DNA of 64,000 nt. Source: Escherichia coli. GTDB lineage: Bacteria; Pseudomonadota; Gammaproteobacteria; Enterobacterales; Enterobacteriaceae. The first letter of the stretch is position 1, and each line of letters begins with the position of its first letter. The notes under the pieces are model-generated. The model had not been told where the DNA came from. It made no database searches and was given only the letters and a program-made list of their open reading frames with translations. The stretch is taken from assembly GCF_003019035.1 (NCBI RefSeq), contig NZ_CP027447.1. One strand, given 5' to 3'. The position numbers and the translations under genes are program-made. Positions 3,525-52,851 of the stretch are shown piece after piece.

Positions 3525-5023
3525 CAGAAACGCTCCAGTTCAGGGAAAGGTAAATGACCGTGATGCACATGCATGGCACCAAATTCAGCACAGCGGTGTA
3601 GCGTGGGAATGTTTTTCCCAGGGTTCAGCAAACCATCGGGGTCAAACGCCGCCTTGACCGCATGGAAGGTCGTGATTTCATCGCTGTTGAACTGGGCGCA
3701 CATTTGATTGATTTTTTCGCGCCCAATGCCATGTTCCCCACTGATGCTGCCGCCAACTTCAACGCAAAGTTCGAGGATCTTCCCGCCCAGCTCTTCCGCG
3801 CGGGCAAATTCACCGGGTTCGTTGGCATCGAAAAGGATTAACGGGTGCATGTTGCCGTCTCCGGCATGAAAGACGTTGGCAACGCGTAAATCATATTGCT
3901 GCGATAAACGGGCAATGCCTTCCAGTACGCCAGGCAGCGCGCGGCGTGGGATGGTGCCATCCATACAGTAGTAATCCGGGGAAATGCGCCCCACTGCCGG
4001 GAATGCGTTCTTGCGGCCGGCCCAGAAACGTACGCGCTCTGCTTCGTCCTGTGCCAGACGGACGTCAGTCGCGCCCGCTTTCAACAAGATGTCGTTAACC
4101 CGCTCGCAGTCTTCCTGTACGTCAGACTCCACGCCGTCCAGCTCGCACAATAAAATCGCTTCGGCATCGACGGGATAACCGGCATGTATAAAATCTTCCG
4201 CCGCGCGGATCGACAGGTTATCCATCATCTCCAGCCCGCCGGGGATAATGCCATTGGCGATGATGTCACCAACCGCAAGTCCGGCTTTTTCTACCGAGTC
4301 AAAGCTGGCTAACAGCACCCGCGCCACGGGCGGCTTCGGCAGCAGTTTTACCGTCACTTCGGTGGTCACGCCGAGCATACCTTCCGATCCGGTAAACAGC
4401 GCCAGCAGGTCAAAACCAGGCGAATCCAGCGCGTCCGATCCCAGCGTCAGCGCCTCGCCATCCAGCGTTTGCACTTCAATTTTCAGCAGGTTATGTACGG
4501 TTAGACCATATTTCAGGCAGTGAACGCCACCGGCATTTTCCGCCACATTGCCGCCAATCGAACAGGCGATTTGTGAGGACGGATCCGGCGCGTAATAGAG
4601 ATTATGCGGCGCAACGGCCTGGGAGATCGCCAGGTTACGCACGCCCGGCTGCACGCGCGCACGGCGACCAACGGGGTTAATGTCGAGGATCTCTTTAAAG
4701 CGCGCCATCACCAACAACACACCTTTTTCCAGCGGCAGCGCGCCACCAGAAAGCCCGGTGCCTGCGCCACGGGTCACCACCGGCACACGCAGGCGGTGGC
4801 AGACAGCCAGAATCGCCGTCACCTGTTCCATCTGCTTAGGCAGAACAACCAGTAATGGACGCGTGCGATACGCGCTCAACCCGTCACACTCGTAAGGAAT
4901 GATCTCCTCATCGGTATGCAGGATCTCCAGTCCAGGGACATGCTCACGCAGTGCCATCAGTACCGATGTGCGGTCGACATCGGGTAAAGCGCCATCAAGA
5001 CGCTCTTCGTACAAGATGCTCAT
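3524..5023 (-). CDS. glcD: glycolate oxidase subunit GlcD (FAD-linked oxidase)
   Basis: 499-aa ORF, FAD-linked oxidase family; first gene of the minus-strand glc operon. Confidence 0.9.
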   Translation of the reverse strand: MSILYEERLDGALPDVDRTSVLMALREHVPGLEILHTDEEIIPYECDGLSAYRTRPLLVVLPKQMEQVTAILAVCHRLRVPVVTRGAGTGLSGGALPLEKGVLLVMARFKEILDINPVGRRARVQPGVRNLAISQAVAPHNLYYAPDPSSQIACSIGGNVAENAGGVHCLKYGLTVHNLLKIEVQTLDGEALTLGSDALDSPGFDLLALFTGSEGMLGVTTEVTVKLLPKPPVARVLLASFDSVEKAGLAVGDIIANGIIPGGLEMMDNLSIRAAEDFIHAGYPVDAEAILLCELDGVESDVQEDCERVNDILLKAGATDVRLAQDEAERVRFWAGRKNAFPAVGRISPDYYCMDGTIPRRALPGVLEGIARLSQQYDLRVANVFHAGDGNMHPLILFDANEPGEFARAEELGGKILELCVEVGGSISGEHGIGREKINQMCAQFNSDEITTFHAVKAAFDPDGLLNPGKNIPTLHRCAEFGAMHVHHGHLPFPELERF

Positions 5024-5273
5024 GAGTAGGCTTCGCTTTGTTGTGTTGTGTGGCAGCTGATTTTTGCGCGCTGCTTCTGTGAACAGTTATTAAGCGGGCT
5101 TTTCGTTTTCGTCTATCTCTTTAGCTACCGGTCAGACCATTTTTTTTCCAGCTCTGTGACCTTGTCTTGGTTAACTTAATGTTAAATTGATGTAACATAA
5201 TCACTTACGTGATGTGCGTGTTTTGCGAGTTAAGAACAGAAAAATTGGTCCTACCTGTGCACGAGGTCCGGGA
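5024..5273. promoter_or_regulatory. glcD / glcC divergent promoter-operator region
   Basis: 250-bp non-coding interval between divergently oriented glcD and glcC; regulatory role inferred from position. Confidence 0.5.
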
Positions 5274-6038
5274 ATGAAAGATGAACGTCGCCCTATTTGC
5301 GAAGTGGTTGCAGAGAGTATCGAACGGTTAATTATCGACGGCGTACTGAAGGTCGGTCAGCCGCTTCCCTCGGAACGTCGACTGTGTGAAAAGCTCGGCT
5401 TCTCACGCTCCGCACTGCGTGAAGGGCTGACCGTGCTGCGCGGGCGCGGGATTATTGAAACGGCGCAGGGTCGCGATTCTCGTGTCGCACGGCTTAATCG
5501 GGTGCAGGACACCAGCCCGCTGATCCATCTGTTCAGTACGCAGCCGCGAACGCTGTACGATCTGCTCGACGTTCGCGCATTACTGGAGGGCGAATCGGCA
5601 AGGCTGGCGGCAACGCTGGGAACCCAGGCTGATTTTGTTGTGATAACCCGCTGTTATGAAAAAATGCTCGCCGCCAGTGAGAACAACAAAGAGATTTCGC
5701 TGATCGAACATGCGCAGTTGGATCACGCTTTCCATCTCGCCATTTGTCAGGCTTCTCACAATCAGGTGCTGGAGTTTACGCTGCAATCATTGACCGACCT
5801 GATGTTTAATTCGGTGTTTGCCAGCGTAAATAATCTCTACCATCGACCACAGCAAAAAAAGCAGATCGATCGCCAGCATGCGCGGATCTACAACGCGGTG
5901 TTGCAGCGGCTGCCGCACGTCGCCCAGCGCGCAGCACGCGATCATGTGCGGACCGTGAAAAAGAATCTCCACGATATCGAGCTGGAAGGCCACCATTTGA
6001 TTCGCTCGGCGGTGCCGCTGGAGATGAAGCAGGGGTGA
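5274..6038 (+). CDS. glcC: GntR/FadR-family transcriptional activator of the glc operon
   Basis: 274-aa ORF trimmed to MKDERRP start (254 aa); N-terminal GntR winged-helix region. Confidence 0.9.
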   Translation: MKDERRPICEVVAESIERLIIDGVLKVGQPLPSERRLCEKLGFSRSALREGLTVLRGRGIIETAQGRDSRVARLNRVQDTSPLIHLFSTQPRTLYDLLDVRALLEGESARLAATLGTQADFVVITRCYEKMLAASENNKEISLIEHAQLDHAFHLAICQASHNQVLEFTLQSLTDLMFNSVFASVNNLYHRPQQKKQIDRQHARIYNAVLQRLPHVAQRAARDHVRTVKKNLHDIELEGHHLIRSAVPLEMKQG

Positions 6039-30402: not shown

Positions 30403-30590
30403 TTATAGTTATTCCGTTGCGAAGACCTGGCATATATTTTGCCTCAATCGCAAAATCAATAATGCGATCGATGCGCCATTTACCACACATTTATTATGGT
30501 TATCGATATCATGATACTGCGGCGGGGCGCTAAAACGAAGGGAAGAAGCATTAGTGTAATTAATTAAAGCAAGATAATACGTATGTTTGA
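30403..30590 (-). promoter_or_regulatory. hyb operon promoter region
   Basis: 188-bp AT-rich non-coding interval immediately upstream of hybO; regulatory role inferred from position. Confidence 0.4.
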
Positions 30591-30878
30591 TCAATTTTCG
30601 AGGCGATAACCGGCCATAAAAAAGCGCAACGTAGAACAGGAATTATTCTCACGAAAGAAATCCATTACCATCTCTTTATCCAGTCCATAGCGGCGCGTCA
30701 GAATACCCGCTTCCCAGGCGCTAAGCTGGCGATCTCCGGTCTTTTCGTACATCCGGTGTGAGTAGCCTAATACAAAACCGCGTTTATAATCGGCACAGTA
30801 TTTTGTCACATTAACCGCACTGTCGGCATGCGTTGCTTTTAATCCCGCCATTAAGCCTTTACCAAAATGGTTATTCAT
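30591..30878 (-). CDS. yghW: DUF2623-family small protein
   Basis: 95-aa ORF upstream of hyb operon. Confidence 0.8.
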
Positions 30879-30996
30879 CGTTCACCTCATTCGCTATATA
30901 TTGTCATATATAGCGATATTTTAGGCAAAGAACGACTTTTGCGCACGCTATTTTTTCATGCTTGTTTAAGACGTAATCCCGTAAGAGATAAACCTA

Positions 30997-31887
30997 TCAG
31001 GAGAGATATTTATCGAACCATTTCAGCGTCCTTTGCCAGGCAAGATCGGCGGCAGATTTGTCATAACGGGGCGTGGAATCATTATGGAATCCGTGATTAA
31101 CCCCCGGATAGATATACGCCTCATAGACCTTATTATTGGCTTTCAACGCCGCCTCGTAAGCAGGCCAGCCCTCGTTGATTCGGGTGTCCAGTTCCGCGTA
31201 GTGGAGTAGTAAAGGCGCTTCAATCTTCGCCACATCGGCAGTGGGTGCCTGTCGACCATAAAACGGCACCGCGCAGGCCAGTTCCGGATACGCGACAGCC
31301 GCCGCGTTCGATACGCCACCGCCATAGCAAAATCCGGTAATACCCACTTTGCCTGTCGCTTGCGGATAGCGTTGCATAAACTCAATTGCGGCAAAGAAAT
31401 CATTCATCAGTTTGGTTGGATCAACCTGCTGTTGCAGCTCACGACCTTTATCATCATTACCCGGATAACCTCCAACGGAACTTAAGCCGTCAGGTGCCAG
31501 GGCGATATACCCCGCCTTCGCCACTCGCCGTGCCACATCTTCGATATACGGATTCAGTCCACGATTCTCATGCACCACCACTACGGCTGGCGTTTTGCCG
31601 CTCATCTTTGCGGGCTTCACCAGATAACCCCGCACCTCGCCGTGACCATTTGGCGAAGGATACGTGATGTACTCAGCAACAATTTCCGGGTCGGTAAACT
31701 CTACCTGAGTCGCCAGCGCATAATTTGGCTTGAGCAAATCAAACAACGCTAATGCCGTCATCCCGCCTACCGCATACTTCGCCGCAAGGTTGAGGAACTC
31801 ACGTTTCGAGATTTTCCCGTGAGCGTAATAGTCGTAGTAATCCAGCAACTCTTGTGGGAAATCTTTGGCGGTTAAACGCGGCATCAT
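30997..31887 (-). CDS. yghX: dienelactone hydrolase-family protein, apparently intact
   Basis: Continuous ORF (310 aa from first Met, about 296 aa from MMPRL) with alpha/beta-hydrolase nucleophile elbow GFCYGG. Confidence 0.75.
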   Translation of the reverse strand: MMPRLTAKDFPQELLDYYDYYAHGKISKREFLNLAAKYAVGGMTALALFDLLKPNYALATQVEFTDPEIVAEYITYPSPNGHGEVRGYLVKPAKMSGKTPAVVVVHENRGLNPYIEDVARRVAKAGYIALAPDGLSSVGGYPGNDDKGRELQQQVDPTKLMNDFFAAIEFMQRYPQATGKVGITGFCYGGGVSNAAAVAYPELACAVPFYGRQAPTADVAKIEAPLLLHYAELDTRINEGWPAYEAALKANNKVYEAYIYPGVNHGFHNDSTPRYDKSAADLAWQRTLKWFDKYLS

Positions 31888-32040
31888 TGCACTCCTCAGT
31901 TGGTGTTTTTTTAAGCAAAGCATAAGCACGTGTTTTTGCCCAGTTTTTCGTCACTCTGTGAGCCAGACTACGGGATACGCGCTGGCGAATCGCTAAACTA
32001 GAAACATTGTTTCGAAATTGAACGGTGGAAAGGAGAGGTC

Positions 32041-34694: not shown

Positions 34695-34731
34695 ATGCCC
34701 GGTTGTGAAAAGCAACCGGGCATCATTTTTA
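34695..34731. terminator. bidirectional rho-independent terminator between yghA and exbD
   Basis: atgcccggttg / caaccgggcat 11-bp stem flanked by A-run upstream and T-run downstream. Confidence 0.65.
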
Positions 34732-40429: not shown

Positions 40430-40533
40430 GCTTTTTACGCCTCAAACTTTCGTTTTCGGGCATTTCGTCCAGACTTAAGTTCACAACACCTCACCGGAGC
40501 CTGCTCCGGTGAGTTCATATAAAGGAGGAACGT

Positions 40534-52781: not shown

Positions 52782-52814
52782 TACACAATGAAGACTGCAT
52801 ACTGAGTAATTTTC

Positions 52815-52840
52815 AATGCCCCACCACTCTGTGGGGCATT
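52815..52840. terminator. stem-loop between convergent TRAP permease gene and ftsP
   Basis: aatgccccac / gtggggcatt 10-bp perfect stem with 6-nt loop. Confidence 0.5.
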
Positions 52841-52851
52841 GAATTGGTCCA

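Follow-up and report, generated by a model that had tools for sequence, protein, structure and literature searches.

In Escherichia coli, the homodimeric molybdate sensor ModE reportedly represses modABC while bound over the promoter and start region (Grunden et al. 1999). ModE activator sites exist too, at dmsA and napF. In addition, the ModE-molybdate complex binds at moaA and activates the S1 promoter (as cited from Anderson et al. 2000). The E. coli ModE consensus has been published as ATCGNTATATA-N6-TATATANCGAT (Rodionov et al. 2004, PMC545781, citing Studholme and Pau 2003), and the Mo-box consensus in other Proteobacteria, for example at the Geobacter modDABC site, is atCGnTATATA-N6-TATATAnCGat.

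Here, we propose that a palindrome upstream of yghW, in a 64,000-nt (64-kb) stretch of E. coli DNA that we call the window, is probably a ModE operator. Genomic SELEX and reporter assays have reportedly revealed that morA, on the other strand at yghW, has a promoter that depends on ModE; that system shares both the locus and the regulator with ours, and the difference is that the target was reportedly assigned to a short-peptide gene of the opposite strand. The title of the study (Kurata et al. 2013) names direct ModE control of morA, and passages that cite it refer to yghW/morA as an overlapping gene pair. Judging from this title and these citing passages, ModE binding and control at the yghW/morA locus are already published, and the element is of a known kind.

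In MG1655, the sequence upstream of modA contains CGTTATATT-GTCGCC-TACATAACG, which ends 21 nt before the ATG and agrees with 14 of the 16 positions of the ModE core (CGNTATATA-N6-TATATANCG), and the sequence upstream of moaA contains CGCTATATA-CATGAT-TACATAGCG, with 15 of 16. The yghW, modA and moaA sites have a 9+6+9 geometry in common, and of these the yghW box comes closest to the consensus (16/16 in the core). Like the yghW box, the modA operator is located just upstream of the ribosome-binding site and start codon (21 nt before the ATG, compared with 13 nt at yghW), and both sites hold a -10-like hexamer within the left half. The two genes differ in that modABC encodes a transporter, whereas the function of YghW is unknown, and ModE binding and repression at yghW are predicted. 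The moaA site, in contrast, is activating and lies beside the S1 promoter, ~170 nt ahead of the coding region, whereas the yghW site abuts the ribosome-binding site and, by overlapping the -10, occupies the position of a repressor. The Mo-boxes of other Proteobacteria, which we compared by motif only, follow the same consensus but belong to other genes and taxa.

Sequence and chance expectation of the palindrome

The earlier note, made from the sequence alone, had described a palindrome, cgctatata-ttgtca-tatatagcg, at 30892-30915, 14-37 nt ahead of the yghW start codon, counted from its first base. We confirmed the palindrome at this position, but its arm length of 9 bp had been understated: the perfect arms are 11 nt long (30891-30901 and 30906-30916) and enclose a centre of 4 nt, the repeat is separated from the start codon by 13 nt, and the yghW-strand reading is ATCGCTATATA-TGACAA-TATATAGCGAa. 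The window is K-12-like, with 100% identity to MG1655 over a 141-nt query around the palindrome, and window coordinates are converted to those of NC_000913.3 by adding 3,115,859.

First-order Markov simulations gave an expectation of 0.15 perfect inverted repeats per 64 kb for arms of at least 11 nt and loops of at most 10 nt. The window contained four such repeats, of which that at yghW is A+T-rich and the other three (34695-34723, 40490-40513 and 52812-52843) are G+C-rich stems of the terminator type. One of these, at 34695-34723, separates convergent open reading frames (ORFs), is flanked on either side by A/T runs and resembles a bidirectional terminator.

All parts of the locus are given as read on the minus strand. 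The putative ModE operator (Mo-box) with its flanks (30890-30917), assigned by consensus match and conservation, reads AT-CGCTATATA-TGACAA-TATATAGCG-AA and is followed by TGAGGTGAACG-ATG. It consists of an upstream, promoter-proximal half-site CGCTATATA (30907-30915), a 6-nt spacer (30901-30906; TGACAA in K-12) and a half-site proximal to the start codon, TATATAGCG (30892-30900). A Shine-Dalgarno sequence, GAGGTG (30882-30887), was read from the sequence 3 nt upstream of the ATG, and a purine-rich block occupies this place in all species aligned. The yghW coding sequence (30591-30878), found in the ORF list and in the RefSeq annotation, encodes 95 amino acids of the DUF2623 family (Pfam PF11115, E = 4.6e-53). 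On the other side of the spacer, the dienelactone-hydrolase gene yghX (30997-31929) appears in the ORF list as an open frame of 310 amino acids; in RefSeq MG1655, yghX is a pseudogene and a small gene, yqhI, is annotated over its 5' part.

Match to the ModE consensus and co-expression with modABC

Our search led to ModE because a transcriptome decomposition of Salmonella groups yghW with modA, modB and modC. The yghW box agrees with the published consensus at 19 of the 20 specified positions, including all 16 of the core. The expected number of 16/16 matches to the core is ~1e-5 in 64 kb and ~1e-3 in a 4.6-Mb genome, and the yghW box was the only match to this pattern in the window with fewer than three mismatches. 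Five other candidates, namely the motifs of LexA, NrdR, Zur and MntR and the H-NS high-affinity motif, did not fit in spacing or half-sites and were dropped once the ModE consensus had been found. A literature search by motif strings returned only noise, such as a mutagenesis primer for SopF.

Indirect evidence comes from published expression data. The 'molybdate iModulon' of Salmonella comprises modA, modB, modC, STM0770, STM0771, STM3142 and yghW; expression of StdEF lowers modABC and yghW together; and in an E. coli sigma-70 mutant, yghW is reduced 13-fold and modA 2.3-fold. These parallel changes of yghW with modABC or modA are consistent with co-repression by ModE, without proving it. Since they come from Salmonella and from indirect perturbations, the co-expression data might, if not strand-specific, partly reflect antisense transcripts. 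Our search of the E. coli literature found no explicit statement linking yghW to ModE, apart from the citations concerning morA.

Conservation of the box among species

We aligned the regions upstream of yghW from 80 other Enterobacteriaceae species and E. coli (81 in total), which were obtained by a protein-pattern scan with one genome per species. The genera include Escherichia, Citrobacter, Salmonella, Klebsiella, Raoultella, Kluyvera, Kosakonia, Enterobacter, Lelliottia, Phytobacter, Yokenella, Cedecea, Buttiauxella and Shimwellia. The earlier note had made its reading depend on conservation in orthologous upstream regions, and the box was present in every one: CGNTATATA-N6-TATATANCG was found with at most one mismatch among the 16 core positions in 81/81 sequences, and without mismatch in 73/81. 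When the ~3-kb loci were scanned in full (257 kb), each contained exactly one box at a threshold of two mismatches. The distance from the end of the box to the yghW start codon was 12-23 nt, except in one species with an insertion, where it was 75 nt. In this species, Enterobacter sp. JUb54 (locus L058, 1397-1500), ~60 nt are inserted between the box and the yghW ribosome-binding site, and the box itself is intact. The neighbouring genes vary among the loci, with yghX upstream in 16, gpr in 24 and hybO downstream in 30.

The information content of the alignment was 1.8-2.0 bits at the specified arm positions, compared with 0.8-1.1 bits at the two N positions, and fell to near 0 bits 30-40 nt upstream of the box and from ~10 nt downstream. 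Within the promoter-proximal half-site (columns 0-8), all columns except the consensus N reached 1.9-2.0 bits, and within the other half-site (columns 15-23), all except the N reached 1.8-2.0 bits; the 6-nt spacer is the most variable part of the box between species. Within the arms, free variation is limited to the third position counted from either outer end, and the variable arm positions of the yghW boxes are thus exactly the two N positions of the ModE consensus. The 81-sequence alignment accordingly displays purifying selection on the ModE contact positions, and none on the N positions or the spacer.

A search for a second ModE site upstream, at AAATAGCGCTA, which is conserved in some genera, yielded a best candidate with at least 4 mismatches in 16 positions. 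In many genera, a short block 20-30 nt ahead of the box is also conserved (for example, loci L028, L033, L036 and L037; ~30944-30952 in the window). It reads AAATAGCGCTAGCC, with the palindrome TAGCGCTA, and takes the form AAATAGCGTGCGC in E. coli. With at least 4 mismatches in 16 positions, this block is no further ModE site; in some genera, it provides a -35-like TAGCCA at a distance of 18 nt from the TATAAT within the box.

Variation within E. coli

Of 5,426 complete E. coli genomes, 5,420 carry the region. Five native E. coli loci, aligned over 177 nt, show one difference at an N position, three in the palindrome centre and one elsewhere, a pattern that is as expected for a ModE site. The centre (30901-30906) is the main polymorphic spot of the yghW-yghX spacer, with TTGTCA, TCGCCA, TCGTAA and TTGCCA as its plus-strand forms.

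In E. coli AF18 (locus L090, NZ_OZ547212.1 2731792-2741848), the 3' end of yghX, the spacer with the box and the first 17 codons of yghW have been copied (~4880-5280 of the locus). In this copy, the 17 codons are fused in frame to mdtM, which encodes a multidrug efflux pump, beside an IS1 element (junction near L090 4945); one half-site is mutated (TATATAGCA) and the Shine-Dalgarno sequence is weakened to AAAGTG. The yghW'-mdtM junction was found in 661 of the 5,426 complete genomes (12%), and it could couple the mdtM pump to the yghW promoter.

Position of the promoter and a model of repression

On the yghW strand, a -10 hexamer, TATAAT, is located at offset +5, inside the upstream half-site, in 76 of the 81 sequences (mean match, 5.83/6). 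Columns 9 and 10 of the spacer (A and T) are conserved because of this hexamer, although the ModE consensus leaves them free. Transcription from it would be predicted to start ~7 nt downstream, in the second half-site; ModE would therefore occlude the -10/start region, and the mRNA would not include the two arms of the palindrome together.

Within the genus Escherichia, the register is less clear. There, the hexamer inside the box has decayed to TATATG, and the best-scoring hexamer in other Escherichia species in our promoter register scan was TAAAAT, an Escherichia-specific alternative that adjoins the box upstream (30918-30923, minus strand; offset -8). A genomic-SELEX peak of the RpoD holoenzyme has been mapped in vitro to the yghW-yghX spacer (Shimada 2014), for which a script predicted the sigma-70 promoter TTGCCT-17-GACAAT (30900-30928, minus strand; -35 at 30928-30923 and -10 at 30905-30900). 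This predicted K-12 -10, GACAAT, falls in the palindrome centre and is conserved in neither O26 nor O157, and its assignment is therefore weak. Because TATATG is degraded and GACAAT differs among E. coli strains, the promoter register in the window is uncertain. In every candidate register, the box covers the start or lies just downstream of it. The supplements of Kim 2012 contain no entry for a yghW transcription start. Binding of the spacer by the RpoD holoenzyme alone in vitro is what a repressor-controlled promoter would be expected to show, and the best reading of the overlap with the -10/start region, judged from the sequence, is a repressor-type placement that makes promoter occlusion a candidate mechanism.

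We accordingly favor the interpretation, to which we assign a probability of roughly 85%, that the palindrome is a ModE operator and that ModE-molybdate would cover the -10/start region of yghW, repressing this gene together with modABC. Of the two possibilities raised in the earlier note, a binding site for a dimeric regulator and a 5'-UTR hairpin, the former thus gains support: the box matches the consensus, is conserved and overlaps a -10 that is itself conserved, and the regulator can be named as ModE. We observed directly that the box agrees with the ModE consensus, has the geometry of the modA and moaA sites, is conserved and overlaps a conserved -10 hexamer, and from this we infer physical binding of ModE at this site, the sign of the regulation and the exact start of transcription.

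The following sequence of events can be envisaged. When molybdate is sufficient, ModE-molybdate would bind the half-sites CGCTATATA and TATATAGCG with their 6-bp spacing; the box that they form spans the -10/start region of yghW, and 13 nt separate its end from the start codon. Because the box covers this region, bound ModE would exclude or block RNA polymerase, and yghW would be repressed along with modABC. Under molybdate limitation, ModE would leave the DNA and yghW would be expressed. Given the symmetry of the box, ModE bound there could additionally control the opposite-strand promoter reported for morA.

Is yghW or morA the target?

The most serious competitor to this interpretation accepts the box as a ModE operator but holds that its functional target in E. 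coli is the non-annotated morA on the opposite strand, with yghW unregulated or affected only incidentally. The title and the overlapping-pair description cited above speak for morA, as does the placement of morA antisense to yghW that the SELEX and reporter experiments reportedly gave. Within the box, the K-12 plus strand offers a good -10-like hexamer, TATATT (30897-30902), and a plus-strand hairpin followed by TATTTT could act within such a transcript. However, this hexamer becomes TATATC in O26, O157 and JL05, and at the mirror position of the box a TATAAT on the opposite strand occurs in only 23/81 sequences, as against 76/81 on the yghW strand. Moreover, the box is placed relative to yghW in 80 species, whereas the sequence on its other side is unrelated between genera, and the gene that is grouped with modABC in Salmonella is yghW. 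We therefore consider exclusive control of morA improbable, albeit deserving of attention, and the two targets are not mutually exclusive.

Since the linkage between box and yghW extends over ~80 species while the other side is unrelated and the mirror -10 is rare, yghW appears to be the conserved target, and morA may be an additional, lineage-specific one. A plus-strand ORF of 77 amino acids (30867-31100 in the window) begins 12 nt inside yghW, antisense to it, and runs through the box into the spacer; this ORF or the plus-strand TATATT may relate to the published, non-annotated morA. A broader proposal, which we regard as evenly poised between being right and wrong, is that yghW is the conserved, primary target of the box, that YghW is a core member of the molybdate-starvation response across Enterobacteriaceae, that morA is a lineage-specific by-product of a symmetric operator and that mdtM is possibly coupled to the yghW promoter in the genomes with the junction.

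RNA structures and other regulators

The second possibility raised in the earlier note, that the palindrome forms an RNA hairpin in the yghW 5' UTR and acts on mRNA stability or ribosome access, gained no support. If transcribed, such a hairpin would be stable (-13.7 kcal/mol for the 28-mer; z = -4.8 for the 71-nt leader), but the same holds for any perfect palindrome; in K-12, an outer helix could additionally pair with the Shine-Dalgarno sequence, but this anti-SD helix is absent from the consensus fold given by RNAalifold. We counted base pairs and applied RNAalifold to 77-81 orthologous sequences, and found that the arms are kept as sequence, not as pairs. Three pairs are invariant, and the variable pair was C-G in 32, C-A in 28, T-G in 10 and T-A in 6 across the 81 sequences, with no association between its two sides; among 65 distinct sequences, it was unpaired in 25. 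The RNAalifold folding energy was -3.7 kcal/mol, covariation contributed -0.02 kcal/mol and no compensatory pair was found, and a scan of 30500-31300 against Rfam gave no match at E <= 1. In addition, the conserved -10 within the box predicts a start inside the palindrome. We therefore regard a functional 5'-UTR hairpin as highly improbable.

Even less credible is a plus-strand intrinsic terminator, formed by the stem-loop and the following TATTTTAGG. A consensus scan lists the palindrome as terminator-like on the plus strand, and the A-run on the yghW strand, which is the plus-strand T-run, is conserved beside the box. However, G-C pairs account for just 3 of 11 in the stem, in contrast to the G+C-rich stems of the three other perfect repeats of the window, and no plus-strand gene ends here, so that a plus-strand transcript would run antisense through yghW; invariant A-T pairs and a match to the ModE consensus would likewise be unexpected in a terminator. 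On the basis of the stem composition and the lack of an upstream plus-strand gene, we rejected this explanation. On the yghW strand, no U-run follows the stem.

That the box is instead the operator of another regulator, for example of YghW itself autoregulating yghW, fits the co-occurrence of box and yghW in every genome examined and the small size and unknown function of YghW, but we give it scarcely any credence.

Implications for YghW

YghW is restricted to Enterobacteriaceae-like genomes, in which it is highly conserved. Structure prediction yielded a five-helix bundle, with a pLDDT of 89 for the best model and 44-50 for the other four, and a fold search with the model returned generic matches only.

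Our results leave the knowledge of how ModE works unchanged. What they add is that a palindrome is now tied to a named regulator, ModE, and to a signal, molybdate, and is under strong selection in ~80 species. As the yghW box is among the best natural matches to the ModE consensus, it is useful for motif models and for molybdate biosensors. The comparison among species also raises the question of which target is the conserved one, the published morA or yghW. Accordingly, yghW, which has so far been linked only to solvent tolerance, is worth study as a gene of molybdate limitation.
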